61,214 bases of DNA from a virus (Duplodnaviria; Caudoviricetes). Positions 59 through 59,225 of the stretch are shown piece by piece. Location of the stretch: positions 1 through 61,214 of IMG/VR virus record IMGVR_UViG_3300049733_000144. One strand, written 5' to 3'. Position numbers and translations under genes: made by a program. Below the pieces are notes generated by a model. It was not told where the DNA came from, searched no databases, and saw only the letters and a program-made list of their open reading frames with translations. Positions within the stretch are counted from its first letter, which is position 1. Each line of letters opens with the position of its first letter.

Positions 59-838
59 TCACGCCGGCCAACCATCAAGTCCGATGCGACTATGTCTGAT
101 TATTTTTTTTTCAGTGCGCGGAGACCACACCTGCTTTGCATGGCGATACCATCGTTCGATCCCTGCTATGGCATGAGGTGTGCCGCGTGCCAGGGCTCTT
201 GTTTTACACACTTGTGGTCCTGGATCGAGTAGCACCACAGTGCCACCAAGTTTGCGGGCCCACCAACGACGCTCATTAAGGAATGGAGCAGATACCACGA
301 ACCAAGCTGCCACGCCTGCGACGGCAGGAGTGGAATGGAGGGAACCTAATCTCGAATTACGGATGCGCAAAGCAGGTTCCAATATATTCCTGCGGGTGGA
401 CTGATCACCACTCCATGGACGCCACTGTTGGGATATGCTGGCGCAGATATCATCGAGGTCTATGGTGATGTCACCAGGAGCGGCATGGTCGCGCACGTAG
501 GTGGATTTTCCTGCACCAGGCGGACCACACACGATGGTGATAGGTATTTGAGACTGGCGTAGCCATGCCGGATGAGGTGCCGACGCTTGATTGGACATAT
601 CTTCGATTACGGTTTTCCGCGCGTGACATTCATGGCAAAGGCCCTGGACATTGTCGTCGGCGTCGGTTCCTCCCATGGTGAGCGGAATGATGTGATCAAT
701 TTCGGCGGTAGGAGTGATGAATCCTTGGCGGTCGCATTCGGCGCAGATTGGGTGAATCCTGAGACGCCGAGCGCGCTGATGCACGGCGGCGCGACCTTTG
801 AGCCTCTTGTGCGCTGAATTCCGGAAATCGAAAGCCAT
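59..838 (-). CDS. HNH endonuclease (terminase-associated type) fused to a P-loop kinase/AAA_33-like domain
   Basis: CAEC...EIDHIIPLTMGG...NVQGLCHECHARKT HNH motif, then Walker A GPPGAGKST and DLDD. It lies directly upstream of terS if the genome is circularised. Confidence 0.85.
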   Translation of the reverse strand: MAFDFRNSAHKRLKGRAAVHQRARRLRIHPICAECDRQGFITPTAEIDHIIPLTMGGTDADDNVQGLCHECHARKTVIEDMSNQASAPHPAWLRQSQIPITIVCGPPGAGKSTYVRDHAAPGDITIDLDDICASISQQWRPWSGDQSTRRNILEPALRIRNSRLGSLHSTPAVAGVAAWFVVSAPFLNERRWWARKLGGTVVLLDPGPQVCKTRALARGTPHAIAGIERWYRHAKQVWSPRTEKKIIRHSRIGLDGWPA

Positions 839-1746: not shown

Positions 1747-3975
1747 TCAAAATTCCATCCATTCTTTGGCGAGGGCTTCAACGTCCAAAACCCTGGTAGT
1801 TTTCAGCAGCTCCTTGATCGGAATCTCAGTCATGGATTTGCTGCTGCACAGCACCCTTCCGTGCCTCCAGGTGGCATCCACGGCTACCTGATCAGGGTGC
1901 ACGAACCATCCTTTGGCTTTGGCAACTTTCCGGATAGTAAGGGGTTTTTCCAGCCTGTCGTTCTGGCGTCCGTCGTAGATGATGGCTCTGATCAATTTTA
2001 CGAACTTGACGTCGTAGATCGCCACTCCTGGGCTCTTCCACTCTCCGTTCGTGGCGGTCTGCGGCCTGGTGTTCCTGGCGATCCAGTCCTGGTCCTGCAT
2101 GTTGTCTGCTATCTTGTCCAGGAGGCCCGAGACCAGCGATTGCCCAGGCGAATATCCTTCTTCTATGACTTCCTTCTTCTGCGTGCTCCACGGAGCCGAA
2201 GAAGACCTGTCCACGGCGTCGTTCGTCTTGAGCCAAGTCTCGGCCCAGTGCTTGATTGCCTCCAGGCCACCGCCGTCGGTCAGCCACCTGTTGAGCTCGT
2301 TCCAGTATTCCGGAGTCTTTTTCTCGTCCGTGACCTTGGGAACGAACCAGCGCCTGTCGTCGCCGGACAGCTGGATGGCCCGCATGGAGTTGCTGCAAGC
2401 GAACACGTGAAGCCAGTTGTCGATGTCGTAGTCAGCGAGATATTTCTTGCGAACAGAGCACTCCTTGTCGGTGAGCACGGACTTGAGCTTGTTGTATGCC
2501 TTGCTGCTGTGGCCGGCGTAGATCTCGTGAACGACGGCCAGCCGCTTGTGGGCCTGCCAGTAATTGAAATTGGAATCGACGATGTCCGACTCGGAAGGAA
2601 ACGACGCGTTATTGCGCCCGACCAGAGGGCACAAGATCCGCTCTCCGAGCGTTCCTTTGCCGACGCCCTGCGTCTCGCTGATGAGGAGAACGCCGTAATT
2701 CATCTTGATTTCCGGCTTCGCTATCAGCGTCGCGATCCAGCGGAGAATCTCCGTCCTGTCGGACTCGACGGGAATCAAGTTCGCCACGAATTCCAGGAAC
2801 GGTCCGGGATCACCGGCTTCTGCTTTCACCGAGCTCGGAACGTGCGTGTTGATGAATCGCCCCGAATCTCCAGAGCCGTATATTCCCGGTTTCTTCGAAG
2901 GATCGTACTTGATCACGGCAGTCTTGCTGGCTCCGTCGACGCGCATCAGCCTAGCCGTGTCTTCGACGTCGGAGAACGGCCGCACGGTGTTGTTGAACTC
3001 GCGATCCGACAGCATGCGGTCCGGCCAGTCTCGGTGGACGAACACCTCCGGCCTGACGCAGTGGAGCCACTCTTCCTTGAACGCCCTCCTGATGACGTGA
3101 TATGTCCGGCGGCCGTTCAGAAGAGTCTCCGTGGCGTGAGTCGCCGGCACCATCAAGTCGCGGAGTCTCGGTCCGATCCAGCGGTTTCTGACGAACAAAT
3201 TTTCGGGCATGTCGTCGGCCATGTCCCAGGCCAGAGGCCAGCGGCCGTCGAACCGAACTCCCTTCAGGGCTCCGCCGTACGCCTTGGAGACGATCTGGAG
3301 GGCCGCCTGGCCCTCCCAGTCGTTGTCGCAGACGTACACCACCTCCGTCGGCCTGGCCCGCCTGAGCTCGCTGTAGTCGGTCCTGTGCGGCGCCAAGGCT
3401 CCGCCGATCATTCCCCAGTGGGCGTACTGAGCCAGCTCGTCGCGCCACGGGTGCCGGTCTCCGACGCGATCAGCCGCCATGGCCGCCTTCGCGCCTTCGT
3501 GGATCATGATCCGAGGTCTGGTGACCTCTGGCTTCCAGAACGGCAGGCTGCCGTCTGGCTCCATGGCTCGCCACTCGCCGTCAGAGAACAGAGTCCAGGA
3601 AACGTACTTTTTCCTGCCGTCGCCTTCGCGTCGCTCCTGGAGCATCACGATGCCGTCGCGGGCCAGGTTCCAGAACGCGGCGACCTGAGTCATCCCGCGT
3701 CGCTGCTCCAATTCCCGCGCGTTGGCGCTTGTGGCCAGGACCGCCCGCGGCCAGTTCGCCGTCAGGACGGCCGTCCGGATCGCCGTCGCCTCGTCCTCCG
3801 TGGGCTCGAGCGATGGATCGGTTACTGTCACCGATCCATCAATTCCAATTCTTATGATGGCTTTCTCTGTGTAATAGTTCCTGTCGTGGTTGTACTCTTT
3901 CACCATGTACTTGCGAAAGTTGATTTGCTCCGCGCCGATCCTGTCCGCGTAGGCCTCGAGTGCCGGCAGTCGCAT
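1747..3975 (-). CDS. Primase-helicase (TOPRIM-like domain plus SF3/DUF5906-type NTPase)
   Basis: IMIHEGAKAA and YVCDND TOPRIM-like motifs; Walker A QGVGKGT, Walker B VVHE, ACSN motif C, DDRRWFV. Confidence 0.85.
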   Translation of the reverse strand: MRLPALEAYADRIGAEQINFRKYMVKEYNHDRNYYTEKAIIRIGIDGSVTVTDPSLEPTEDEATAIRTAVLTANWPRAVLATSANARELEQRRGMTQVAAFWNLARDGIVMLQERREGDGRKKYVSWTLFSDGEWRAMEPDGSLPFWKPEVTRPRIMIHEGAKAAMAADRVGDRHPWRDELAQYAHWGMIGGALAPHRTDYSELRRARPTEVVYVCDNDWEGQAALQIVSKAYGGALKGVRFDGRWPLAWDMADDMPENLFVRNRWIGPRLRDLMVPATHATETLLNGRRTYHVIRRAFKEEWLHCVRPEVFVHRDWPDRMLSDREFNNTVRPFSDVEDTARLMRVDGASKTAVIKYDPSKKPGIYGSGDSGRFINTHVPSSVKAEAGDPGPFLEFVANLIPVESDRTEILRWIATLIAKPEIKMNYGVLLISETQGVGKGTLGERILCPLVGRNNASFPSESDIVDSNFNYWQAHKRLAVVHEIYAGHSSKAYNKLKSVLTDKECSVRKKYLADYDIDNWLHVFACSNSMRAIQLSGDDRRWFVPKVTDEKKTPEYWNELNRWLTDGGGLEAIKHWAETWLKTNDAVDRSSSAPWSTQKKEVIEEGYSPGQSLVSGLLDKIADNMQDQDWIARNTRPQTATNGEWKSPGVAIYDVKFVKLIRAIIYDGRQNDRLEKPLTIRKVAKAKGWFVHPDQVAVDATWRHGRVLCSSKSMTEIPIKELLKTTRVLDVEALAKEWMEF

Positions 3976-4111
3976 CGCGTTCTCTCCGATTTGATTTCAC
4001 TTTAATTTGACTATTTCGCCTTGAAAATAGTATTTTGACACACTACTCAAATAATTGTTTTTCTGTCTCTTTTTCTCTGGTACAGATGCCTCAGCACATC
4101 ACGGTGAACGC

Positions 4112-4657
4112 ATGACAGATCGCCTCGAAGACATAACGCGCCTCGCGTCCGCGGCCCGCGTCCTGGAAGCGGAGATCCTCCGCGACGAAATCGCTCTCTC
4201 CCACAAGAAGGCTCGACTCCAGCGCGTCCTCCATGACCAGCTGCCGAGCCTGATGTCGGCCGCCGGCGTCGACGACCTGTCGCTTCAGGCCAGCGACGAC
4301 CTGCCGGCGACTGATTTCTCCCTCGGCGGCTACTACAGGGCCTCGATTCCGGTCTCGTGGTCGGCGGAGCGGCGCCAGGAAGCATTTTCCACGCTTCGCG
4401 CCCGCGGAGCCGACGGCCTGATCAAGACCAACGTTCAAGTTCAGTTCGCCAGAGGCTCTTCCCTGGAAGCCCGCGTCCTGGCCGACTCGCTCGCGGCCAG
4501 AGGCTATGAACCGTCGCTCTCAGAGACGGTTCACTCTTCCACCTTGTCCGCGTGGCTCCGCGAGCTCTACTCCAGCGGCCTGTCGCTGACCCAGGACGAC
4601 CTGGACAGGATCGGAGGCAATGTCGGTCAGATCGTTCGCATGAAACCAAGGGAGTGA
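4112..4657 (+). CDS. Conserved phage replication-module protein, unknown function
   Basis: First gene of the plus-strand operon, tightly coupled to the next gene; N-terminal coiled coil and VHSSTLSAWLRE motif. Confidence 0.6.
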   Translation: MTDRLEDITRLASAARVLEAEILRDEIALSHKKARLQRVLHDQLPSLMSAAGVDDLSLQASDDLPATDFSLGGYYRASIPVSWSAERRQEAFSTLRARGADGLIKTNVQVQFARGSSLEARVLADSLAARGYEPSLSETVHSSTLSAWLRELYSSGLSLTQDDLDRIGGNVGQIVRMKPRE

Positions 4658-4658
4658 C

Positions 4659-5465
4659 ATGACCAAAGAGATCAAGACGACGACGACGCCGCCGTCCGTT
4701 CCCGATTACCTCAAGGGCCACGTTCCCACCGGCGCGGGAGTTCCCACCAAGTCCAGCGACTTCCTGATTCCCATAGCCAAGGTCCTCGATCCGAAGTCAC
4801 CGGAAGTCGAGCGCAGAGGCCCGTCCTACGTCAAGGGCGCGGAGCCCGGCGACGTCCTGATCAAGTCCGGACCCATTCCCCTGATCAAGGGCGAAGTTGG
4901 TTTCCTGTTCCAGCTCTGCCACATAGAAGAGGCCGCGATCGAGTGGCTGCCCAGGACCAGGGGCGGCGGCGGCGGAGGTGGCTTCGTGGCCAGGCATCCC
5001 GTGGAAGCTCTGCGGACGGCTAAGCAGGAAACCGCGGAAGGCGGCAAGATTGTCTGGATCAACGACCGAGGCAATTTCCTGGTGCACACCCGCTACTACA
5101 CGGGATACATGCTGGCCGCCGACGCCGGGCCTCTGGCCATGGTGATACCGTTCGCGTCCACCGGCCACACGGTGGCCAAGGGCTGGAACCTCCTGATCGC
5201 CAACCAGGTCCTCAACGGCCACACCGCCGACGTCTGGATGGTGTACTACCGACTCAGGACGCGACTCCGCACCAGGGCCGACCAGGCCTGGTACGTGTTC
5301 GAAGTCTCCAACGCTGGTCCGGACCATCCCACCTACGGCACGCCGACCGCCATGTGGGCTCCGACTCCGGCCGACCTGGCCAGAGGCCAGACGCTGAACA
5401 GGGAGATGGAAGCCGGCCACAGGCAGCCCGACCCAGCCGCCGTCACCGAGGAGGCTCCGTTTTGA
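4659..5465 (+). CDS. Putative single-stranded DNA-binding/annealing protein
   Basis: GAEPGD and EWLPR..GGGFV motifs, acidic tail ending EEAPF typical of phage SSBs, GGAG RBS. Confidence 0.55.
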   Translation: MTKEIKTTTTPPSVPDYLKGHVPTGAGVPTKSSDFLIPIAKVLDPKSPEVERRGPSYVKGAEPGDVLIKSGPIPLIKGEVGFLFQLCHIEEAAIEWLPRTRGGGGGGGFVARHPVEALRTAKQETAEGGKIVWINDRGNFLVHTRYYTGYMLAADAGPLAMVIPFASTGHTVAKGWNLLIANQVLNGHTADVWMVYYRLRTRLRTRADQAWYVFEVSNAGPDHPTYGTPTAMWAPTPADLARGQTLNREMEAGHRQPDPAAVTEEAPF

Positions 5466-6427
5466 TCATCGTCGGCGCCGGCATGGCGGGCCTCCTGGCC
5501 GCCAACATGCTCAGGCACAGGGACCCGATCGTCGTCGAGTCTCAGTCGGAGTTGCCGAACAACCACTCGGCGGTTCTTCGCTTTCGCTCCTCCGTGATCG
5601 GAGACCTGCTCGGGATACCGTTCAAAAAAGTGAAAGTCCTGCGATGCGTGGCGACGTCGCAGGACAACGTCGTCGCGCACTCCCTGGCATATTCCCAGAA
5701 AACTCTCGGCGTCATCATGTCGGATCGGTCGGTCGGATCGGTGGAAGCCGTCGATCGATACATCGCTCCGCCAAATTTAGTCATGCGGATGTCGAGAGGC
5801 ATCCGCATAAAGTGCGACACGAATTTCGATTTCAAGGCCGCGAAGGAAAAAGTCATCTCCACTGTTCCGATGTCGTATCTGCATCGCGCCCTGATGCCTG
5901 AATCGAAAATCCATGATCTGGATTTTCGATACGCCCACGGCTTCAACATATCGGCGGTGATCGAGAGCTGCGACGCCTACGCGTCCGTCTACGTGCCGGA
6001 CCCGCGTCATCCGTTCAGCAGAGTCTCGATCACCGGCCACGATCTGATCATCGAGTATGCGTTTCCAGGCAAGACTTACGATCAGGTTCAGAAGCTGGCC
6101 GCGATCAAGGCCATGGGCAAGGCCGTCACCGACGACGTCGAGGCCGCGATGCTCCTCCTTGGCCTCCGCCCCGAGATCGCGACGTTTCCAGTCATCCGCC
6201 CCCAGCGGTTCGCGAAGATCCTTCCCATCGACGATCGCAAGCGGAAGGCTTTCATCTACTGGGCTTCGACGGCGAAGGGCATCGCGTACCAGCTCGGTCG
6301 ATATGCCACGTGGCGTCCGGGACTCTTGCTCGACGACCTGGTCAACGACGTTCGCACGATCGACGGCTGGATCAGCCAGGGCGAAGCCCAGGGCTACGCC
6401 ATGGACATCCACGAGGCCAGGCAGTGA
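5462..6427 (+). CDS. FAD-dependent oxidoreductase (Rossmann fold, UDP-galactopyranose-mutase-like C-terminus)
   Basis: TTG start overlapping the previous stop; IIVGAGMAGLLAA dinucleotide-binding motif; C-terminal LGRYATW. Confidence 0.75.
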   Translation: MIIVGAGMAGLLAANMLRHRDPIVVESQSELPNNHSAVLRFRSSVIGDLLGIPFKKVKVLRCVATSQDNVVAHSLAYSQKTLGVIMSDRSVGSVEAVDRYIAPPNLVMRMSRGIRIKCDTNFDFKAAKEKVISTVPMSYLHRALMPESKIHDLDFRYAHGFNISAVIESCDAYASVYVPDPRHPFSRVSITGHDLIIEYAFPGKTYDQVQKLAAIKAMGKAVTDDVEAAMLLLGLRPEIATFPVIRPQRFAKILPIDDRKRKAFIYWASTAKGIAYQLGRYATWRPGLLLDDLVNDVRTIDGWISQGEAQGYAMDIHEARQ

Positions 6428-7131
6428 TCACGCATTATCGCCGCGGCACGGCAGACGAGAACGCCATGCGAGAGGTGAGATCATATTTCAGAATCATGGG
6501 AGCCAACGGCCTTTCCCTGGCTGGCAAGAGAGTCCTCGACATCGGAGCCCACATCGGCTGCTTCACCAGGGCGGCCCTGGACGCCGGCGCCGACAGAGTG
6601 CTGGCTTTCGAGCCCCACCCGAAGAATTACGAGCTTCTGACCATGAACTGCCAGGACGCGAGAGCCGACCTGAGGCAGGCCGCTCTGGTGTCCGACAACA
6701 GGACTGAAACTAGTCTGGTGGTGGGCAGGAGACATAATCCCGACGTCGGAACGGAAAGGTTCTCCACGTCCAGGAGACAGAAAGGCAATCTCCACGTGGC
6801 CACAGTCGAGTGTCAGAAATTCAGCGCAGTGCTGCGAGATTTCAATCCGCAGGTGATCAAGCTCGACGCCGAGGGAGCCGAGTACGACCTGCTCAATTCT
6901 CAGCAGCTGCCTGACGACGTCGAGTTCCTGGTCGGAGAGTTCGACTGCTCCGGCAGCTTTCGCCTGCCAGACGGCGGCATGACCGGGACCGTCGGGCTCA
7001 AGAACTACGAGCCTCTGTGGGCCCTGATCACCAACTTGGAAAAGCAAAGGTTCAGGTACATCGGCAGGACTGACATGCGACTGCCGAAGAAGATTTTCCT
7101 GATCCACGTGCTGTTCATCAAAATAGCGTGA
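6424..7131 (+). CDS. FkbM-family SAM-dependent methyltransferase
   Basis: GTGA overlap; VLDIGAHIG, AFEP, IKLDAEGAEY motifs. Confidence 0.85.
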   Translation: MITHYRRGTADENAMREVRSYFRIMGANGLSLAGKRVLDIGAHIGCFTRAALDAGADRVLAFEPHPKNYELLTMNCQDARADLRQAALVSDNRTETSLVVGRRHNPDVGTERFSTSRRQKGNLHVATVECQKFSAVLRDFNPQVIKLDAEGAEYDLLNSQQLPDDVEFLVGEFDCSGSFRLPDGGMTGTVGLKNYEPLWALITNLEKQRFRYIGRTDMRLPKKIFLIHVLFIKIA

Positions 7132-7157
7132 AATAAACATGGCCAAGCGCGGAACAA

Positions 7158-7169
7158 TTACTTACTTAC
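7158..7169 (+). promoter_or_regulatory. TTACTTACTTAC box (phage promoter motif) upstream of pentamer array 1
   Basis: Same box as in the early promoter cassettes at 14313, 14737, 15740, 18286, 19261, 19459 and 19724; the -10 element is weak here. Confidence 0.55.
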
Positions 7170-7198
7170 AGAATTTGTGACAAAGCAGTGAACGCAGA

Positions 7199-7263
7199 GG
7201 CCGGGCCGGGCGTGGCTGGGCGCGGCTCGGCTGGGCTAGGCCGGGCGAGGCAAGGCAAGGCAA
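7199..7263 (+). repeat. GGC-NN pentamer array 1 (13 units), candidate guide ncRNA
   Basis: GGC every 5 nt with no phase break; NN = CG CG GT TG GC TC TG TA CG GA AA AA AA; intergenic. Confidence 0.9.
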
Positions 7264-7287
7264 GCAAGACAATGATGGAGCACGACG

Positions 7288-7906
7288 ATGCTGGACAAGA
7301 CAGTGATCGCGACCAAAGCGACGGAGATCCAGACCAGAAGCGTGATGCTTCGGGGACTGACGGATATCATGTTCGACCGCTACCCGGGAGACAACAACAC
7401 CAAGCTGGAGCCGTGGCAGAAGCTCTACCTGGAACCTGGCGGGTCACGGGTTATTGGGCTGCCGGCGCTGAACATCATGTCGTTTCTTTCGGCCCACAAC
7501 ACAAATTCCGCTCCTAAGCGGCTGCGCGACAAGCGCAAGTACAAAGACCTGGCTAACGCGATGCTGTCGTTCGTCAGCATCAGGGAGCAGTTCATTCCTC
7601 TGCTCCGCAACAACGCTCCGATCGTGTTCGGCAAGTTCGACGGAGACAGAGATGCGGTCAGCGGCGCTTACGTGGCCTATCACGTCGCGCGGCTCGACAA
7701 GGGCGTGCCCAACCCGAAGGTCCGTCCCGTGGTGCCTCTGGACTGGGCCGTTCGCTTCACGGTCGACATCTTTCCCAATCGGGGAGATCAAGGAAACCGA
7801 CATCACCAACCTGATGGAAGAAGGCGGGCGAGCCATTGGCCTCGGGACTTTCCGCGGCGTGTTCGGCAAGTTCCGCATCGAAGAGTGGAACGAGATCAAG
7901 AGCTGA
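7288..7906 (+). CDS. Stand-alone Cas7/RAMP-like protein (~205 aa if repaired), split by a 1-nt frameshift at 7781-7784
   Basis: GGAG RBS; beta1 VMLRGLTDIMF, LYL..G..IGLPALNIMSFL (cf. RAMP xIPGSSxKG), VRPVVPLDWAVRFTVDI; in the +1 frame, the G-rich loop EEGGRAIGLGTFRGVFGKFRIEEW. Confidence 0.75.
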
Positions 7907-7911
7907 AATTC

Positions 7912-8031
7912 GGCGTGGCCGGGCTCGGCCAGGCGCGGCGGGGCGCGGCTGGGCATGGCGTGGTGCGGCCAGGCTGGGCACGGCGTGGCACGGCAGGGCA
8001 TGGCATGGTAGGGCCGGGCAAGGCGAGGCGA
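7912..8031 (+). repeat. GGY-NN pentamer array 2 (24 units), candidate guide ncRNA
   Basis: 22 GGC and 2 GGT at exact 5-nt period; NN = GT CG TC CA GC GG GC TG AT GT GC CA TG AC GT AC AG AT AT AG CG AA GA GA; starts 5 nt after the RAMP stop. Confidence 0.92.
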
Positions 8032-8042
8032 GGAAATAAATC

Positions 8043-8801
8043 ATGCGCGTCACACTGATCGACTACACCGGCAAGGGCTCTCCGAGCGAGCGCTGGAGGG
8101 CCGCGGACCTGATGATCTTCACCAAGAGCACCAGGGTCGCGATGTCGCCGTCTCTCCTCGACGAGATCACCGCGTGGCCAGAGGACAAGAAGCTCGCCGA
8201 GCTCCAGTACATGGCCAACACCATTCCCAGCTCGTGGGAGTTCTGCGACTACACGTTCATGGTGGAAGGAGTCACCCGCGCGCTGACGCACCAGCTGGTG
8301 CGGCACCGCCACATGTCGTTCGCCCAGCAGACCATGCAGATCCTCGACATGAGCCAAGGTCCGGGGTGGACCTATGAAGAGGGCCCTTCTCTCAGGGCTT
8401 CTTCATCTGGAAGTTCTTTGTATCAAAGGACCATGGAGAACGTGGCCAAGGGATACGCCCTGCTTGTCAAGACACCCGGCGTGCGGATAGAGGACGCCAG
8501 AGGAGTTTTACCAACCAACATCCACACCAACATCGTGGTCAAGGCCAACATGCGCTCCCTCGTGGAGCTGTTCCACAAGCGCGACAGTCCCAGGAACCTG
8601 TGGGAGATATCAGCCTTGATGGATCTCATCAAGGCCGAGGTTCTCAAGGCTCACTCGTGGATGGATTTGTTCATCAACAGAACATTCGACCAGGCGGCCA
8701 AGGACCTCGACAAGGAGCTCCGCTCGCTCGACGGCGTGGCTCCAGACAAAGTTAATCGCATGATGAAGCTGGTCGATCAGATGAGGATGAAATCGTCGTG
8801 A
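8043..8801 (+). CDS. thyX: Flavin-dependent thymidylate synthase-like protein (divergent active site)
   Basis: EFCDYTFMVEGVTRALTHQLVRHRHMSFAQQT and EDARGVLP...NMRSL. Confidence 0.85.
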   Translation: MRVTLIDYTGKGSPSERWRAADLMIFTKSTRVAMSPSLLDEITAWPEDKKLAELQYMANTIPSSWEFCDYTFMVEGVTRALTHQLVRHRHMSFAQQTMQILDMSQGPGWTYEEGPSLRASSSGSSLYQRTMENVAKGYALLVKTPGVRIEDARGVLPTNIHTNIVVKANMRSLVELFHKRDSPRNLWEISALMDLIKAEVLKAHSWMDLFINRTFDQAAKDLDKELRSLDGVAPDKVNRMMKLVDQMRMKSS

Positions 8802-9232
8802 CGTTCGTTGTTCTCTGCGACCTAGACCACACCGTCAGCGACGCCTCCTGGAGGGACGCCATGATCGACGGCAAGAACTGGGACGCCTACCACCAGGCCG
8901 GCTTCGAGGACAAGCCTCTGACTAAGATCATCGCTGTCGTCAGGGCCCTTCGAAACAGCGGCGCCACCGTGATCGGGCTCACCGCGCGACCAGAAAAATG
9001 GCGACAAGAAACAATCCGTTGGTTAGTGACCAACGGATGTCCCATGGACGAGATACTGATGCGGCCCGAAGGCAACCACATGCCGTCGCCTCAGGTCAAA
9101 GTCATGCTGGCCAGGCAGCGCTTCGGAGATCTGTCTGAGATCACCGTGGTGATCGACGACAGGGAGGACGTGTGCTCGGCGTTCGTCGCCGAAGGCGTCT
9201 CGGCCTTCCGCTGCGTGGCGGTGCCGCGATGA
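8798..9232 (+). CDS. HAD-superfamily phosphatase (PNK 3'-phosphatase-like)
   Basis: DLDHT motif I, LTARPE, ILMRP, K, IDDR. Confidence 0.85.
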   Translation: MTFVVLCDLDHTVSDASWRDAMIDGKNWDAYHQAGFEDKPLTKIIAVVRALRNSGATVIGLTARPEKWRQETIRWLVTNGCPMDEILMRPEGNHMPSPQVKVMLARQRFGDLSEITVVIDDREDVCSAFVAEGVSAFRCVAVPR

Positions 9233-9774
9233 ACAAGACCGTGCCCGACAGGCTCGCGGCCCTGGCCGACATATATCGGAGCAGAAACACTCTCTATTCC
9301 GACAACTACAAGCGCCTCGGCGACGCGCTGATCGCGATCTGGCCGAAAGGATTGTTCCTGCGCACGCCGCAAGATTTTCTGCGCTTCAGCATGTTCAACA
9401 TGCTGATCCACAAAATTTCCAGATACGGCGTCAACGTCCTGGCAGGCGGCCACGCCGACAGCTTGGACGACCTGGCCGTGTACGCCGTGATGATCAGAGA
9501 GTTGGACGATGAGCTCAACGTTCCTGTTCGATCTAGAAACCACAGGCCTGATGGCCAACCGCACCATGGCGCTGTCGCGGCAGCCCGAGGTGATCGAAGT
9601 CTACGCGTGCCTGGCAAGCCTGGAAACAGGAGAAACGAAGGCCGAAGTCGCGAGCCTGATCAGGCCGCTGGGCAAGCTGCCGGAAAGAGTCACCAAGATA
9701 ACCGGGATAACAAACGACATGGTGTTCGCGGAAGGCGTACCGGTGCTGGCAAAGCTGATCGGAGGCCTGATTGA
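9229..9774 (+). CDS. Alpha-helical nucleotide-modification-associated / pyrophosphatase-like protein
   Basis: RNTLYSDNY...KISRY...HADSLDDLAVYA pattern; the 3' 266 nt overlap the exonuclease gene. Confidence 0.55.
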   Translation: MNKTVPDRLAALADIYRSRNTLYSDNYKRLGDALIAIWPKGLFLRTPQDFLRFSMFNMLIHKISRYGVNVLAGGHADSLDDLAVYAVMIRELDDELNVPVRSRNHRPDGQPHHGAVAAARGDRSLRVPGKPGNRRNEGRSREPDQAAGQAAGKSHQDNRDNKRHGVRGRRTGAGKADRRPD

Positions 9775-10051
9775 CATGATCCACAGTTCCGACCTGGTGA
9801 TCAGCCACAACGCGTCGTTCGACACGGAAGTCCTCGAAGTGGAGGCCGAGCGCTGCGGCAAAAGGATCATCTGGCCCAGGGTCCTGTGCACCGTGGAGCA
9901 AACGATATCACTGAGAGGATATCGCTTGTCTCTCGGCGAGCTCCACGAGCACTGCTTCGGCGTCAAGTTCACCGGAGCCCACAGAGCCAGGGACGACGTC
10001 CAGGCCCTTCTTCGCTGCTGCGTTCACCTCAGGGCCGAGGGCGTGATATGA
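9509..10051 (+). CDS. DEDDh 3'-5' exonuclease (Pol III epsilon-like)
   Basis: FDLETTG, SHNASFD, AHRARDD. Confidence 0.9.
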   Translation: MSSTFLFDLETTGLMANRTMALSRQPEVIEVYACLASLETGETKAEVASLIRPLGKLPERVTKITGITNDMVFAEGVPVLAKLIGGLIDMIHSSDLVISHNASFDTEVLEVEAERCGKRIIWPRVLCTVEQTISLRGYRLSLGELHEHCFGVKFTGAHRARDDVQALLRCCVHLRAEGVI

Positions 10052-10524
10052 CGATGATCCTGATCGGCATGAACAACCCGCACGCCGACGAGGCCCTGGT
10101 GCCGACTCGCAGAGGAGACGCCGCGTCTCGACTCGAAGCCATAACCGGCGTCACCATCAAGGACCACTTCGATTGCCTGAACATGTGCTGCGATCGATAC
10201 TGGAACCCCGCGGCGGCTCGCAGGCGAGGCGTCATCATTCGCCAGATAGTCACCGAGGCAGGCGTCGACAAGGTGGTCGTCCTGGGCAGAGATGCCTGGC
10301 GAGCCCTGGGTTTCAAGGCCGCCGAGAGCGCGATAGTGATAGTGGCCAACAAGTGGCACCGAGTGCCTCACCCGTCGGGGAAGAACCTGTGGTACAACTC
10401 GCAAGCGAACAGAACGAAAGTCAAGAGGCTATTCGAAGCGCTCGTCAAATCGAGCGAGAGCTCATCGACGCCTTTCGTCGCGTCGGCGTCGATGTCAAGT
10501 TTGGAAGCGGAGAGTGCTTCGTAG
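10048..10524 (+). CDS. Uracil-DNA glycosylase superfamily protein
   Basis: ILIGMNNP, VVVLGRDA, VPHPSGKN motifs. Confidence 0.7.
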   Translation: MTMILIGMNNPHADEALVPTRRGDAASRLEAITGVTIKDHFDCLNMCCDRYWNPAAARRRGVIIRQIVTEAGVDKVVVLGRDAWRALGFKAAESAIVIVANKWHRVPHPSGKNLWYNSQANRTKVKRLFEALVKSSESSSTPFVASASMSSLEAESAS

Positions 10525-10607
10525 AGCTGAGCGACGACAAGGAGCTTCGAATCTCTGACCTGGTGTCAGCCCTTACTGATCACGTCACGCCACGGAGGTG
10601 AAACGCA

Positions 10608-10958
10608 ATGACCGAGCTCAGAAACCACCGCATCATCGAGTACAGGGACAAGAAAAGCGACAGGATGATCAAGGCCCTCCTCTGCGTGTCGCGCAACGAC
10701 AAGTACAGAGACTCGGTGGCCCTGACCATCCAGACGTTCAAGGACGCCATCGCCGCCTACGGCATCGAGCAGGTCTGCGTCGAGCTCCCTGGCAACAGGA
10801 GATACCGACTCGCCCTCGATCTCGTGTGGGAGAAGATCAACAGCGCGGACCGCATCCACGTCGGCGGCGACGGCAGCGAGTTCCTGATCCTCCGCTTCGA
10901 GGACGACGACGAGTGGAACTCCGCGGAGCTCAAGCACTCCTCGAGGCACCAGCGATGA
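10608..10958 (+). CDS. Hypothetical protein
   Basis: GGAGG RBS; ATGA coupling to dnaE. Confidence 0.6.
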   Translation: MTELRNHRIIEYRDKKSDRMIKALLCVSRNDKYRDSVALTIQTFKDAIAAYGIEQVCVELPGNRRYRLALDLVWEKINSADRIHVGGDGSEFLILRFEDDDEWNSAELKHSSRHQR

Positions 10959-13822
10959 GGGTCAGGACGGGCTACTCGTTCCGGGCGGCCGTAGGCCACC
11001 TCGAGGAAGTAATCAATCGCCTACAGGCGATCGATTATCCCGCAGCTCCGATCTCTGACCGCTGCTCGACGTTCGGGTTCTCGAAGTGGGACAAGCTGAC
11101 GCGGAAAGCCGGCCTCCGCCCCGTCTTCGGCGTCGAGCTGGCGGTCGTGCCAGAACTGGGACAGAAAAGACCAGTGGTAGATCACTGGTCGTTCTTCGCC
11201 AAGGAGTCTCTGCGACCCCTCCACGACTTGATCGCCAAGGCCACGTCCAACCACGGCAAGGAGCCCAGCGTCCTCTACGGCCAGGCCCTCGCCGCCGCTG
11301 GCCTGATCAAAGTGGCCGGCGCCAGGGTTCTGATCAACAAGGTGCCGACCGACTCGACAGACTTCTATGTCGCGTTGTCTCCTTCCACTCCAAAATTCCT
11401 CTACACTGCCGCCACGCGAAATGGATTTCGCATGGTCGCTTCGTCGGACAACTACCACACGCTTCGCTCCGATCTGGAATTCTACCGCGTCGCACTCGGC
11501 TCCAGGTCCAGCACGCAGACTTACCCGACCCACATATTGTCGGACCAGGAGTGGCGCGACTCGGTGGCTTGGTTCGCCGACGAAGATGTCGTGACCAGAG
11601 CTCTGGCCACGAGAAACGACCTGCTGGCCGCGTGCCGAGCCGAGATCATCAAGGCCGACCTGCTGGTGCCAGCCAAGCCCAAGTCTCTGCGGCAGATGTG
11701 CCAAGAAGGAGCCGAAATAAGAGGAATAAATTTGAGTGATCAAATTTATTCCTCTCGCCTCGACCGAGAGCTCTCGATCATAGCCGAGAAAAAATTCGAG
11801 GACTACTTCTACATCCTGGCGGACATGGTGGCGTGGGCCAGGGAGCGGATGGTCGTCGGCCCGGCGCGAGGCTCCTCTTGCGGGTCGCTCGTTTGCTACT
11901 TGATCGGCATCACGGCCATCGATCCGATCCCGTTCAAGCTGGTGTTCGAGCGGTTCATCGACGTGACCAGGGCCGACTTGCCGGACATCGACGTGGATTT
12001 CAGCGACGCCAATCGCCACCTCGTTTTCGAGTACGCGGAGCAGAAGTACGGCAAAGACAGAGTCGCAAGGCTCGGCTCCGTCGGCACGTTCCAGCCGGCA
12101 TCTGTGTTCAACCGGCTGTCCGACGCGCTCAGGATACCGTCGCATGAGATCGAAAAAGTCACCAACAGCCTGATCAAGCGATCGAGGGGAGACTCGCGCG
12201 CCAGCCAAACCATAGAAGACACGTTCAACGACACCGAGGCCGGCAAGGAGCTGGTTCGCGATCACCCGGAAGTCAAGATCGCCTTCAGGCTTGAGGACCA
12301 TCCCACCAACGCCGGCCAGCACGCCGCCGGAGTGGTGATCACGAACACTCCGGTCGCGGACCACGTCGCGGTCGACATGCGAACGGGCGCGATCATGGCC
12401 GACAAGAAAGACGCGGAAGAGCTCGGCCTGCTCAAGATCGACGCGCTCGGCCTGACTCAGCTTTCCACGTTCGAGCGGACGATGGAGCTGATAGGCAAAC
12501 GTCCCGTCTCGGGTTGGCTCGAGACTCTGCCGATCGACGACCAGTCGGCGTTCGACGTCCTCAACAGGAAGCACTTCGCCGGAGTGTTCCAGTTTATCGG
12601 CAAATCCGTCAGGTCTCTGGCAGAGGAAATTAAGATCGACCGCTTCGGAGACTTAGCCGACATAACAGCCCTGGCCAGGCCTGGCCCTATAGGCGGCGGC
12701 GGAGCCGACGACTGGGTGGCCCGCCGAACCGGAAAGAGACCAGTGACCTACGTCCACCAGGCGTTCGAGCCTTACCTCAAGGACACATACGGCGTGGTGG
12801 TGTACCAGGAGCAGGTCCTGGCCATAGGTCGCGAGATCGGAGACTTGTCGTGGGAGGAAGTAACCGGCCTTCGCAAAGCGATGTCCCGTTCCCTGGGCAA
12901 AGAATACTTCGACGCCAACGGCGGCAACAAGTGGAAGGACGTGGCCACGGCCAAGGGCATTCCCAGGGAGACCGCCGAGAAGATGTGGGACGAGATCTGC
13001 TCGTTCGGTCTGTGGGCATTCAACCTGGCGCACTCGGTGGCGTACGGCATGGTGAGCTACTGGTGCTGCTGGCTCAAGGCCCATCACCCGCTCGAGTTCG
13101 CCGCCGCCACGCTCGATGCCGAGTCGGACCCGACGCGCCAGGTCACCGTCCTCCGCGAGCTCGCCGAGGAAGGCGTCGAGTATCTACCCGTCGATCCAAA
13201 CTTGTCGACGGATAGATGGACGGTTCAGCGCGGCGACAGGCCGCGGCTGATCGGCCCGCTGACGGCGATCAAAGGCATAGGTCCGGCGAATGTCCTCACC
13301 ATCCTGGACGCCAGGAAGAACGGAGTCGAGCTGACACCTGGCCTCCGCAAGAAGCTCGAGTCGCCGAAAACCGAGATCGACAGCTTGTATCCGATCAGCA
13401 AAGCCGCGTCGCCGTTGATGGAAAAGAAAAAAATCGAGACTCCGCGCTGGGACATCAAAGACGTTCAGCCCAGCGTGGCCCAAGAAGTCATGATCGTCGG
13501 CGTCGTGACCAAGATCAACCCGTCGAACGAGAATGCTCCCATCAAAGTCGCGCGACGCAACGGCCAAAAGGTCTACCCTGAGATGGCCCTCAACATGTTC
13601 GTCAAGGACGACACGGACGAGATCTTCTGCAAAGTCCACCGCAACAGCTACGAGCGAATAGGCAAAGAGATAGCGGCCGAGAGCCGCGTTGGCAAATCGA
13701 TTTACGCCATCAAGGGCAGACCCCAGGCCGGAGATTTCCGAATGATCTGGGTCAGGGCAGTTCGCTACCTCGGAGAGATCGATGGCAAAGAGAAAAACCC
13801 GGTGCTGGAGCAGAGCGGCTGA
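10955..13822 (+). CDS. dnaE: DNA polymerase III alpha subunit (family C)
   Basis: PHP-like N-terminus (RTGYSF, PVFGVE), GPARGSSCGSLV, LPDIDVDF, HAAGVVI, KIDALGL, VYQEQV, FNLAHSVAY. Confidence 0.95.
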   Translation: MRVRTGYSFRAAVGHLEEVINRLQAIDYPAAPISDRCSTFGFSKWDKLTRKAGLRPVFGVELAVVPELGQKRPVVDHWSFFAKESLRPLHDLIAKATSNHGKEPSVLYGQALAAAGLIKVAGARVLINKVPTDSTDFYVALSPSTPKFLYTAATRNGFRMVASSDNYHTLRSDLEFYRVALGSRSSTQTYPTHILSDQEWRDSVAWFADEDVVTRALATRNDLLAACRAEIIKADLLVPAKPKSLRQMCQEGAEIRGINLSDQIYSSRLDRELSIIAEKKFEDYFYILADMVAWARERMVVGPARGSSCGSLVCYLIGITAIDPIPFKLVFERFIDVTRADLPDIDVDFSDANRHLVFEYAEQKYGKDRVARLGSVGTFQPASVFNRLSDALRIPSHEIEKVTNSLIKRSRGDSRASQTIEDTFNDTEAGKELVRDHPEVKIAFRLEDHPTNAGQHAAGVVITNTPVADHVAVDMRTGAIMADKKDAEELGLLKIDALGLTQLSTFERTMELIGKRPVSGWLETLPIDDQSAFDVLNRKHFAGVFQFIGKSVRSLAEEIKIDRFGDLADITALARPGPIGGGGADDWVARRTGKRPVTYVHQAFEPYLKDTYGVVVYQEQVLAIGREIGDLSWEEVTGLRKAMSRSLGKEYFDANGGNKWKDVATAKGIPRETAEKMWDEICSFGLWAFNLAHSVAYGMVSYWCCWLKAHHPLEFAAATLDAESDPTRQVTVLRELAEEGVEYLPVDPNLSTDRWTVQRGDRPRLIGPLTAIKGIGPANVLTILDARKNGVELTPGLRKKLESPKTEIDSLYPISKAASPLMEKKKIETPRWDIKDVQPSVAQEVMIVGVVTKINPSNENAPIKVARRNGQKVYPEMALNMFVKDDTDEIFCKVHRNSYERIGKEIAAESRVGKSIYAIKGRPQAGDFRMIWVRAVRYLGEIDGKEKNPVLEQSG

Positions 13823-54316: not shown

Positions 54317-55240
54317 TCACCACTTGCCGTCTCGGCCGGGCGGGCCGGCCGGACCCTGGGCGCCGTCCTTGCCGTCCTTGCCGTCCTTGCCGTTCCTTCC
54401 CCGCTTGACCATCAGAACCCAGTCCTTCGTCTCTGGCTTGGCCCGCGTGTCAGCCACGCACAAGAACGTTCCGCCGTCCCAGGTCGCCGTGTCGCCTCGC
54501 TTGTACTCTTCGCCGAACTTCCAGACGCCCCTGAAGCAGTCGGCGAAAGTCAATGGCTTTTCTTTCGGCCAGCGCCACTCGCCGACCAGCTTGCCGTCGC
54601 GCGTCATCCGAAGGCCGAAGTGCTCTGGCTCGCTGAACTGCTCCACGTCGCTGAATCCCAGGCCGTCCTTGCCCGGAGAACCCTGTTCTCCCGGCCGCCC
54701 GTCGGTTCCATCGCGGCCAGGTGTGCCATCGCGACCATCGCGTCCCGTCGCACCAGCGGAGCCTTGTGGGCCGTCTTGGCCGTCTTTACCGTCGAGCCCA
54801 TCCAAGCCGCGCTCTCCTTGGGGACCAGGAGCGCCGTCGCGACCGTCTTGACCAGGAGGGCCCTGCTGGCCGGTCGGTCCTGGCTGGCCGTCTTGACCGC
54901 TCAATCCCCGTTCGCCTTGCTGACCCATCAGACCTTGCGATCCGCGTTCGCCTGGCAAGCCGTCGGTCCCGTCCTGGCCATCTTCGCCCCGCTCGCCCTT
55001 TTCTCCCTGCTCGCCCTTTTCTCCGCGTTCGCCCTTTTCTCCGCGCTCTCCGGGTTCTCCCTGAGATCCATCCAGGCCGCGCTCTCCTGGATCGCCTTTG
55101 TCGCCCTTTTCGCCTTTCACCGGCGGCGCCCGTTCAAGTTCTTCGATCCTGGCGAGCAAAGGCCGCTGGGCAGAGTCGATGGCCTCGCGCAGGACGGGCA
55201 ATATCGCGTCCGCGAACGCCACGATCATTCGAGGATTCAT
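54317..55240 (-). CDS. Collagen-like (Gly-X-Y) virion protein
   Basis: Long uninterrupted G-X-Y run; FRGVW..G..Y..GD.ATW.G domain. Confidence 0.88.
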   Translation of the reverse strand: MNPRMIVAFADAILPVLREAIDSAQRPLLARIEELERAPPVKGEKGDKGDPGERGLDGSQGEPGERGEKGERGEKGEQGEKGERGEDGQDGTDGLPGERGSQGLMGQQGERGLSGQDGQPGPTGQQGPPGQDGRDGAPGPQGERGLDGLDGKDGQDGPQGSAGATGRDGRDGTPGRDGTDGRPGEQGSPGKDGLGFSDVEQFSEPEHFGLRMTRDGKLVGEWRWPKEKPLTFADCFRGVWKFGEEYKRGDTATWDGGTFLCVADTRAKPETKDWVLMVKRGRNGKDGKDGKDGAQGPAGPPGRDGKW

Positions 55241-57194: not shown

Positions 57195-59225
57195 CTACTC
57201 GGCATATTTCGCGTTCTGGATGTAGCCGACCGCGTTGTCGCGGGCCTTCTTCCAGGTGATCCAGCGCTCGCCCTTGACCGCGACCATGTTGTGCTGCCAC
57301 AAGCTGACGAGTACAGTAGACGCGGTGGCCGGCGAATCTGGCGCCGAATCCATCTGCAGCGACGCTTCGCGCGAAACATCGATGCTGACCGTGCCGTCGT
57401 CGGCCAGCATGATCTGGTTGGCGATGGCGAAGATCAGCGGATAGCCGTCCGTCGGGCTGCCGCCGGTGGCCGGGATGTTCTCCGATGCCACCACGGGGAA
57501 ACCGTAGAACGAGCCGCCGCGCGGCGTCACTCCGGGGAACTCCGGATTACCCAGCGTGTTAACCATCATGGAGATCGCGATGGCCTGCTGCTCGGTCATG
57601 ATCCAGTGACCGGTCGACGTGGACAGGTTGTTGGACGCGATGGTCGAGAACAAAGTCTTGACGTCGGTGCGAAGCGCCGCGGCGGTCGTGCCGGTAGCGG
57701 TAACTGCCGAAACGCCGTTGGTGATCGACGCCGGGCTGACGCCGCTCTCTTCGGCCTTGGTCGGATCGATGAAATCGCGGTCCATTTTCTCCGTGATCTC
57801 GTTGACCAAGTTGTTGCGGATCAGGCCCTCGGCCGCCGGGTTGCTCAGCCGCCAGAGCTCCTCGGTCAGCGGCACGATGCCGGCGATCTTGTGGTGCTCC
57901 ATCGTGACAGTGTCGAACGCAAGCTGGCTGACAGGCTTGACTTTGCCTTCTCCGACCCAGTTCACGGTCGCGCCGCCGGTCTGCCGCGGAACTTTGACCT
58001 TGAACGGGACGCGGAGGAGCCCAGAGATGCGGCCGATGATCGACTGCGCGAACAGCAGCTCGATCAGCGCGTTCTGCATGTTCTGGTACACGACCAGCGG
58101 TCCGGCCCACGTCGAGTCAGTCGTGGTGCCCGGGTTCTGAGCCGCGCGAAGCTGAGTGACGAGCTCGATTTCAGGACAGTGCGGATACAGGAACCGAGCC
58201 TGCTCGCTGGCGGAGATGCCCTCGAGGCGAGCTCCGAACTTGGCGAGCGCGAGCCGGAACAGTCCGAGGCTCATGTCCATCGGCGGCCGTGCGGAGATGA
58301 CGCGGTTGTCGCCGTTGGATTTGCCGGAGCGCGCGTCGGAAGCCTTCTGAGCGTCGTCGACGCGACCGATCGCGATGGCTTGCTTCTTGTTGTGCTCTTC
58401 CTGGCGCCGCAGCCGCACCAGGTGCTCGTCGATCTTCTTGACATCCAGCTCGAGCGCGTCGTATTCCTGCGACTGCTCGTCGTCCAGGGTCACCTGCTCT
58501 TCGGCAGCCTTGTTCATCAGCGCGGCCATGCGCTCGGACTTCGCCAGTCGCGTGGCCTCGTAAGCCGAGATCTGCTCGGCGATCGTCTGTTTCATGACGA
58601 TACCTTTCTTGACAGACGGATTCGTTGATGCCGCGACGCCGGCGGATTTGGCGACACCGCGCTGCTTGCCTGACGCGGCCAGCTTGGCGTCGTGGTCAGA
58701 ACGCAAGGCAACGTAATCAAAGCCGTCGTCCTTGTCGCGCGACGCCGCGTCGACTGCTTTGAGTGCCGTTATGCTCGCGTCAGAGTTGGCTGGTATGGTG
58801 ACCAGGCTGAGCTCGAGAACTTCGGTCTCGACGAACCGGATGCCTCGGCCATCGGCCTCGTCCATGAAGTTGAACTCGATCGGCCTGAAGCCGATGGACA
58901 CGCCGCGAACCAGGCCGAGCTTGACGGACTGCCAGGCCTCGTCCAGGCGGTCTTTCAAGTTTCCGGCATCTTCGGTGTCGGCGATCCTGGCTCGAAATCT
59001 GATGCCGTCCTTCGTGGCCTTCGCGAACGTGGCGTGGCCCACCGGTTGAGTGCGGTCGTGCTGCCACAGCAGAGGGAGGGGGTTCTTGAACTGCACTCCC
59101 AGTGGTTCTATGATGTCGCCGAGGCGGTCCGGCGTCGGCGTCGTGGCCACGCCTTCGATGACTCGCTGATCTTCCTTGATCGCCTTGACTTCGAGAACGC
59201 TGTAAGCTCTGCCGATCTGTGTCAT
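57195..59225 (-). CDS. Prohead protease-major capsid fusion (HK97 fold)
   Basis: DRLGD, LLWQHD..PVG, GVSIGF, ELSLVTIPAN (protease); coiled coil; VPRQ..GA..WVGEG..KP (capsid); TGATG coupling with terL. Confidence 0.93.
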   Translation of the reverse strand: MTQIGRAYSVLEVKAIKEDQRVIEGVATTPTPDRLGDIIEPLGVQFKNPLPLLWQHDRTQPVGHATFAKATKDGIRFRARIADTEDAGNLKDRLDEAWQSVKLGLVRGVSIGFRPIEFNFMDEADGRGIRFVETEVLELSLVTIPANSDASITALKAVDAASRDKDDGFDYVALRSDHDAKLAASGKQRGVAKSAGVAASTNPSVKKGIVMKQTIAEQISAYEATRLAKSERMAALMNKAAEEQVTLDDEQSQEYDALELDVKKIDEHLVRLRRQEEHNKKQAIAIGRVDDAQKASDARSGKSNGDNRVISARPPMDMSLGLFRLALAKFGARLEGISASEQARFLYPHCPEIELVTQLRAAQNPGTTTDSTWAGPLVVYQNMQNALIELLFAQSIIGRISGLLRVPFKVKVPRQTGGATVNWVGEGKVKPVSQLAFDTVTMEHHKIAGIVPLTEELWRLSNPAAEGLIRNNLVNEITEKMDRDFIDPTKAEESGVSPASITNGVSAVTATGTTAAALRTDVKTLFSTIASNNLSTSTGHWIMTEQQAIAISMMVNTLGNPEFPGVTPRGGSFYGFPVVASENIPATGGSPTDGYPLIFAIANQIMLADDGTVSIDVSREASLQMDSAPDSPATASTVLVSLWQHNMVAVKGERWITWKKARDNAVGYIQNAKYAE

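Follow-up and report, generated by a model that had tools for sequence, protein, structure and literature searches.

What is encoded by an array of five-nucleotide units, with three letters fixed and two that change from unit to unit, placed directly upstream of a RAMP protein gene in an uncultured soil phage, is the question raised by this locus. The stretch of DNA analysed (the window) is an IMG/VR virus record of 61,214 bases, rated 91% complete. Array 1 (7199-7263, + strand) consists of 13 exact GGC-NN units, and parsing in 5-mers returned the NN series CG CG GT TG GC TC TG TA CG GA AA AA AA followed by a degenerate GCAAG, exactly as listed in an earlier, sequence-only reading of the locus. 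From GCAAG the 3' flank (7264-7287, + strand) passes into an A-rich stretch that holds the GGAG ribosome-binding site of vipr (7288-7906, + strand), a gene for a single-RRM RAMP protein of ~205 aa with its frame broken by one extra base. Array 2 (7912-8031, + strand) has 24 GGY-NN units, 22 with GGC and two with GGT (both conforming to GGY), ends with the NN AA GA GA and occupies the whole gap between the vipr stop codon and thyX. Array 1 is very probably the guide-encoding vrRNA array of a VIPR system, made up of vipr and the two arrays that flank it.

The arrays stand out clearly from the rest of the window. A pattern of four GGCNN units followed by GGC was found 19 times, in all cases on the + strand and within 7199-7261 or 7912-8004, compared with 0.00 expected for this five-unit pattern from 100 dinucleotide-preserving shuffles. 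At the window's own GGC frequency (0.027 per position), 13 units in phase would arise somewhere on the two strands by chance with a probability of ~5.5e-16. When scanning both strands, runs of at least four phased GGC were exclusive to arrays 1 and 2, and the remaining phased GGC runs, situated near 12672-12687, are three units long.

A Pfam search gave no family for the vipr product, and PHROG 4652 (of unknown function) matches its C-terminal piece only. The family is nevertheless large, with 1832 of 2011 candidate proteins at E<=1e-3 and 266 cluster representatives at the same threshold in a 50%-clustered library; all 120 members listed are unnamed or called 'hypothetical protein' and carry no Pfam domain, and a close vipr relative occurs in one of 50,697 isolate phage records. 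Comparison of profile A1, built from 92 members of the family, with the PDB gave a match to chain 36pp_D, the 'SUSP1 Vipr protein', at E 1.3e-9 and 41.5 bits, in an alignment limited to the C-terminal ~115 residues (profile 73-187, chain 80-190 of 202) that spans the thumb Arg (..RP..) and the G-loop. In SUSP1 the GGY bases are held by R138, D177, W178, R179 and H17. The equivalents of R138 and R179 are invariant or nearly so in the profile (R144 and R187 in P0007 numbering), and H17 of SUSP1 is located outside the aligned part. The G-loop, D177-W178-R179 in SUSP1, reads T-F-R in the clade of the window, with D177 replaced by T, W178 by F and R179 kept, a change in two of the three G-loop residues in contact with GG in SUSP1.

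In place of the broken gene of the window a close homologue (P0007, 84% identical to the restored protein P0006) was modelled with AlphaFold (AF2), giving a mean pLDDT of 95.5 and a pTM of 0.88. The model has the minimal RAMP fold, that is one RRM core, a thumb and a glycine-rich loop within ~20 kDa, with the G-loop (GLGTFRGVFGKF) positioned C-terminally. Foldseek revealed 76 matches in the PDB at E<=1e-3, the best being Csm3/Cas7 RAMP subunits of type III CRISPR complexes (E 3e-6, prob 1.00, TM ~0.5). The label of RAMP gene, given before any database search, is therefore correct, since both the profile match to 36pp_D and the structural matches to Csm3/Cas7 agree with it.

The likeness to the backbone of Class 1 CRISPR complexes (Cas7/Csm3/Cmr4) concerns the RAMP fold and the principle that each protomer takes up a constant number of guide nucleotides, bases being flipped periodically. 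The Class 1 CRISPR period is 6 with one base flipped, whereas that of VIPR is 5 with three bases buried, and the noncontiguous guide of VIPR also sets it apart from the CRISPR guide. A tandem-repeat scan of the window showed no repeat-spacer array, and neither other cas genes nor an adaptation module were found in it. Class 1 CRISPR-Cas was thus rejected as a candidate, only the RAMP fold being common and the neighbours encoding a methyltransferase, ThyX, a PNKP-type phosphatase, an exonuclease and DnaE. TRAP of Bacillus, which binds 11 (G/U)AG triplets 2-3 nt apart, is a ring of beta-sandwich subunits with a role in attenuation and not as a guide partner. A phased triplet motif, a period of ~5 nt and an oligomeric RNA-binding protein are shared features, but the fold is unrelated; a TRAP-like ring binder was dropped after the Vipr profile match, and no homology was found.

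VIPR, the subject of preprints from 2026, combines a ~20-kDa Vipr RAMP protein with vrRNAs of 9-16 GGY/NN (YNNGG) repeats with a 3' tail (10.64898/2026.04.26.720920), commonly with one array upstream and further arrays downstream of vipr (10.64898/2026.04.26.720920; 10.64898/2026.04.26.720927). One Vipr protomer binds each repeat with GGY buried and NN available for pairing with DNA, and R-loops extend 3' to 5' along the guide (10.64898/2026.04.26.720920; 10.64898/2026.04.26.720927). The rule by which one target nucleotide is skipped per repeat is experimental for type II VIPR, in SUSP1 and P. fulva (10.64898/2026.04.26.720920), and has structural support (10.64898/2026.04.26.720927); in published VIPR the skipped base is mostly the wobble position of a codon, and in SUSP1 a change of NN alone reprograms DNA targeting (10.64898/2026.04.26.720920). 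The code on which the sequence-only reading had speculated, each NN being read with the following base skipped, is the published VIPR code. Seven types with varied array layouts are distinguished, an accessory vap gene typically adjoins vipr, and six such genes are named (10.64898/2026.04.26.720920); as there are more types than named vap genes, a type without vap is probable. The 3' tail is described for type II, other types being variable (10.64898/2026.04.26.720920).

When comparing the locus with type II VIPR (Escherichia phage SUSP1 and a Pseudomonas fulva prophage), the shared features are a single-RRM RAMP protein of ~200 aa that has the thumb Arg and a G-loop, one GGY-NN array on either side of vipr and on the strand of the gene, a fixed GGY scaffold with hypervariable NN, a phage-borne location and, for the window by comparison with shuffles, no self-target. 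The sequence similarity is only distant, being confined to the profile match in the C-terminal part (E 1.3e-9). The G-loop is D-W-R in SUSP1 and T-F-R in the clade of the window, and type II has a vap gene whereas the clade has none. Where SUSP1 has a pseudoknot tail, the arrays of the clade finish with about three A-rich cap units, and AT-rich sequence comes next. Type II vrRNAs have 9-16 repeats, compared with 24 units in array 2 and up to 69 in arrays of the clade. The vipr of the window is frameshifted, unlike that of the characterised type II systems, and the skip rule is applied to it here by analogy.

A search of IMG/VR with P0006 returned 16 relative loci. In 14 of these, clear arrays of 9-69 units are situated directly upstream and/or downstream of vipr, in the remaining two (L024 and L026) the arrays are short or degenerate, and arrays are also present in five out of five full-length MAG relatives. 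Every array detected in the relatives lies on the strand of the gene and none on the opposite strand, and within 15 complete or partial kin records together with the window the arrays adjoin vipr and occur nowhere else. Conservation over 1028 units from 41 arrays is 97.6% for G1, 98.3% for G2 and 95.5% for C3 (T 3.0%), and unit positions 4 and 5 take all four bases with a bias towards purines/A, CT being rare. Between the arrays of a near-identical pair of relatives (L020 and L021) the differences are one indel of 25 nt (5 units) and five substitutions, all of the latter at NN. It is on the Vipr homology, the array statistics, the linkage and common orientation of gene and arrays, the conserved GGY with hypervariable NN and the match to the literature that the locus is identified as a further example of VIPR, of the kind described in 2026, in a clade that is vap-less, tail-less and has long arrays.

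The lack of a vap gene follows from an all-against-all BLASTP of the ORFs of 23 loci, where none was found and only vipr was shared by more than four loci, apart from ORFs overlapping vipr or the arrays, which this level of sharing also took in. The MAG relatives of vipr are spread over unrelated phyla, and the hosts of the nearest isolate phages are Pseudomonas, Klebsiella, Ralstonia, Burkholderia and Xanthomonas. In Burkholderia phage vB_E436 the homologue is intact (63% identity), and upstream of it there is a degenerate array of the NNNGG type. In Mycobacterium phage Philus (L002, PP208935.1) a GGY-NN array of ~250 nt (2410-2660), with occasional units of 4 or 6 nt, forms the start of gene 52 in the annotation, and behind it an ORF for a Vipr-like protein of ~200 aa (2798-3397) carries a D-W-R G-loop like that of SUSP1 and aligns with the family in hhalign (prob 88%, E 2.8e-6). 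Using blastn, array 2 matched 14 Mycobacterium phage records, and arrays of ~250 nt are carried by Cluster F mycobacteriophages, namely Philus and 13 further records; the string 'Mycobacter' does not appear in the body of the first preprint on VIPR (bioRxiv 10.64898/2026.04.26.720920).

Some relatives carry arrays in tandem, up to five in L011 (3115-3935) and up to eight in L015 (1968-3909), separated by conserved, AT-rich spacers of ~22-30 nt (..ATTTGTT(G/A)(A/G)TT..). The layout is like that of repeats and spacers, but here the 'spacers' are constant and the arrays variable. These AT-rich spacers may be processing sites or promoters.

Natural VIPR targets are satellites, prophages and rival VIPR loci, with no self-targets among them (10.64898/2026.04.26.720920). 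When searching the window itself with zero to three bases skipped against 100 shuffles of unit order, a self-target was not found, and with one base skipped the best NN match of either array was no better than with shuffled order. A match of 19/24 to units 1-12 of array 2 appeared in the window with three bases skipped, was equalled by 1 of 100 shuffles and is read as multiple-testing noise. Among 15 kin virus records (without L022), array 1 in the NNx register gave no match at <=3 mismatches. IMG/VR and the JGI metagenomes were scanned by exact seeds. The exact ten units of array 1 gave no match in IMG/VR, and three eight-unit seeds (u1-8, u3-10 and u6-13) gave 6, 11 and 19. Three eight-unit seeds tiling the 24 units of array 2, used as an empirical null for these counts, gave 15, 7 and 16 matches in IMG/VR, with 4-11 of 32 matching outside the seed, which is chance level.

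Over the first ten units the best IMG/VR matches of array 1 reach 19/20 (L062 and L065) and, in a homologous contig (L067), 18/20. In three homologous contigs of 47% GC (L125, L132 and L135) units 4-13 are matched exactly inside the Walker-A motif of an AAA ATPase. Relative to the evident gene, the skip falls on the second codon position both in L062/L065 and in L125/L132/L135. The JGI metagenome contigs gave one match to the exact ten units (L085, 168-1168, - strand), in a gene for an Xre-type antitoxin beside one for a RES-domain toxin, with the skip again on codon position 2; with 20 fixed bases and a roughly estimated collection size about one match is expected by chance, and we judged it to be a chance match.

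An all-against-all comparison within the clade, with 42 arrays (676 ten-unit segments) against 1.2 Mb of kin genomes, gave segments with a best match of at least 17/20 in 27 cases for skip 0, 50 for skip 1, 46 for skip 2, 29 for skip 3 and 36 for the reversed guide, and thus no advantage of skip 1 over skip 0, 2 or 3 or over the reversed guide. The single match of 19/20 was to a GAx-rich stretch of low complexity and mismatches after ten units. Nor did NN composition separate the registers, a sense model with the wobble base skipped scoring -3.983 and the dinucleotide background of the genome -3.984 bits per unit.

A natural target was thus found for neither array in the window, the 15 kin genomes, IMG/VR or the JGI metagenomes, and all matches look like chance. 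NN identities of 80% or more do occur outside the window, at the level of chance and with the skip on codon position 2. The pattern search proposed for array 1 gave no excess over shuffled strings or other gap registers in any collection searched, the comparison being with shuffled unit order in the window, with other registers and a reversed guide in the kin genomes and with the array 2 seeds in IMG/VR. As to the earlier idea of a coding target for a CxxC Zn-finger, nothing was found in its support, and the expected fall of the skipped bases on third codon positions did not appear, the best near-matches placing the skip on codon position 2 of their evident genes. What stands of the proposal that a skipped wobble base blunts synonymous escape is the reading of NN with one base skipped, in agreement with the published rule; the target that array 1 would recognise in this way was not recovered. 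The failed search is absence of evidence only and does not refute the mechanism, the big collections having been searched with exact seeds only.

What is specific to the window is that vipr is frameshifted while the arrays on either side of it are perfect. The ORF that starts at 7288 is homologous to proteins of ~200 aa up to about residue 164 and then continues as a low-complexity tail through array 2. Frame 1 of vipr extends from 7288 to ~7780, and the conserved C-terminus (..GEIKETDITNLMEEGGRAIGLGTFRGVFGKFRIEEW..) with the G-loop sits in the next frame and ends with TGA at 7904-7906. A DNA alignment with three relatives located one extra base in a run of four G (7781-7784, + strand), which is one base shorter in the relatives, whose proteins read ..FPNREIKE.. 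at this place; a single four-letter step in the reading restores the 205-aa protein P0006. Identical letters without gaps were found in contigs from other soil samples, two from DNA runs (X6, 6900-8049, and X7, 7565-7873) and one from a metatranscriptome-library run (X18, 7574-7805), these runs possibly belonging to one sampling campaign and therefore not being fully independent, and the frameshifted 256-aa product is recorded from 7 contigs. The break is thus a trait of the phage population rather than a one-off assembly error.

With the insertion placed ahead of the G-loop, the system may have been inactivated recently, or its arrays may be served only by Vipr in trans. The stronger form of this reading, that the VIPR of this phage is genetically dead and that its arrays are relics or act as solo vrRNAs on the Vipr of co-infecting or resident relatives, is a serious possibility that we place somewhat below an even chance. 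Besides the break itself and its recurrence in the contigs, it draws on the perfect state of arrays 1 and 2 and on the solo vrRNAs known from VIPR-null SUSP1-like phages, which load onto the Vipr of relatives (10.64898/2026.10.15.759431). Those phages resemble the window in having intact arrays without an apparently working vipr of their own, but they have lost vipr and vap1 by deletion (1,114 bp; 10.64898/2026.10.15.759431), whereas in the window the gene is present with a single-base insertion. The 41 out-of-frame codons of the C-terminus are, however, still open and close to those of relatives, so the break is recent or tolerated; contigs drop minority alleles, so that an intact allele may persist as a rare variant, and no donor of Vipr in trans is known.

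The arrays are also placed where they could act in cis. Array 1 ends 24 nt ahead of the vipr ATG, and the GGAAA that follows array 2 (8032-8036) overlaps the ribosome-binding site of thyX, the ATG of which is at 8043. A scan of 6900-8300 showed no σ70-like promoter sites and no terminator on the + strand. A leader in which Vipr coats arrays within the mRNA and controls translation of the next gene (vipr or thyX), the NN being irrelevant, would agree with these positions, with the lack of such promoters and terminators between arrays and genes and with the failure to find a target. We nevertheless hold it to be improbable, as arrays of relatives precede unrelated genes or none and occur in tandem sets of up to eight per locus, as NN changes alone reprogram DNA targeting in SUSP1 (10.64898/2026.04.26.720920), and as a quick turnover of NN on a fixed GGY is guide-like and for an operator neutral at best.

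Least probable is a DNA-level element (G-quadruplex, R-loop, origin or iteron) or a translated repeat such as ORF 7188-7517, for although the strands are strictly asymmetric, with GG at intervals of 5 nt, and although an ORF spans array 1 and an annotated 256-aa product spans array 2, a period of 5 is no multiple of 3 and relatives differ by indels in multiples of 5 nt, so that any reading frame would break, the read-through ORFs are low-complexity strings of Gly/Ala/Arg, and in every relative examined the arrays are linked to a Vipr homologue. Earlier candidates, namely a translational operator, a coding repeat and G-quadruplex or bent DNA, were dropped or demoted after the 36pp_D match and the VIPR preprints.

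GGY-NN arrays create spurious ORFs on both strands and are in this sense an annotation trap. The recorded gene call of the window (P0001, 256 aa, 7288-8058) runs through the frameshift and array 2 into a tail rich in Gly/Ala/Arg.

Returning to the VIPR guide array, the end of the array shows a regular structure throughout the clade. In 42 clade arrays, units ending with AA, GA, TA or CA make up 83% at each of the last three positions, compared with 21-45% at positions 5-8 from the end, and an AT-rich stretch follows this A-rich terminal cap. The earlier suspicion that the A-rich final units carry little information is borne out by this, and judging from the sequences the final three units of array 1 (AA AA AA) are part of the A-rich 3' cap that is constant in the clade. 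Directly downstream of array 1 the flank (7264-7320) does not fold better than shuffles (z -0.58), and a structured tail or pseudoknot like that of SUSP1 was not found there; array 1 itself could form an imperfect hairpin (z -2.49). Searches with Rfam gave no matches in the window at gathering thresholds, none in 7100-8100 at E<=5 and none in 17 related loci, where a hammerhead was likewise not found, and no tRNA genes were found in the window.

With no promoter or terminator detected nearby and the arrays abutting vipr and thyX, the sequence context indicates that the arrays are probably excised from a longer transcript. One metatranscriptome library has contigs over parts of vipr and over the junction of array 2 and thyX (7994-8216), and array 1 lies outside the contigs of two such libraries; contigs of this kind neither prove nor exclude RNA.

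The genes around the locus can be described in their own right. Upstream of array 1 (4055-7131) there are genes for DUF7307 (Pam3 gp33-like), a Pam3_Gp34-like protein, PHROG 4828 and an FkbM-type methyltransferase, and these four are not conserved beside vipr in relatives. Downstream of array 2 (8043-13822) ThyX, a PNKP-type HAD phosphatase, an RNase T/DEDDh exonuclease and a DnaE-type DNA polymerase III alpha subunit (1074 aa) form a nucleotide/replication module. An ORF at 59-838 (- strand) combines an HNH endonuclease with a small terminase, and an ORF of 899 aa at 57195-59894 (- strand) matches families of both head maturation protease and major head protein, which suggests a fused or overlapping protease-capsid gene. 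Two tandem repeats, one of 9 bp at 54362-54398 (4 copies, 96% matches) and one of 18 bp at 54983-55060 (3.7 copies, 87% matches), are located in overlapping ORFs of the structural region and may encode a collagen-like or other peptide repeat.

By analogy with the published systems, array 1 would be transcribed on the + strand, probably within a long rightward early/replication operon, and then trimmed. Each 5-nt unit would be bound by one Vipr protomer with GGY buried and the two N bases presented. The NN dinucleotides of the resulting filament would pair with double-stranded DNA in the register NNx NNx, one target base being skipped per unit, and the R-loop formed in this way would silence transcription of a competing mobile element. 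Transcription, filament formation, the one-base skip and silencing are all carried over here from the VIPR literature.

A more specific picture, which we regard as rather unlikely when taken as a whole, is that the lineage represents a tail-less and vap-less VIPR variant with vrRNAs cut from long, uninterrupted arrays (24-69 units), in which about three A-rich cap units replace the pseudoknot and in which vipr has been knocked out in this phage with the guides still perfect. If true, it would mark an intermediate on the way to 'guide-only' parasitism of the Vipr of relatives, or a vipr regulated by frameshifting.

As presented in the 2026 preprints, VIPR is a minimal system for RNA-guided binding of DNA, its code is noncontiguous, and it has been proposed as an ancestor of the CRISPR RAMPs. 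For annotation, the locus shows that gene callers read through such arrays, as in the 256-aa product here and in gene 52 of Mycobacterium phage Philus. The window adds an example from an uncultured soil phage, belonging to a large family, and the long arrays, A-rich cap, lack of an accessory gene and T-F-R G-loop of the clade indicate that the architecture drifts while the GGY-NN scaffold remains fixed. The frameshifted vipr with intact guides has a bearing on the published arms race of 'solo vrRNAs'.
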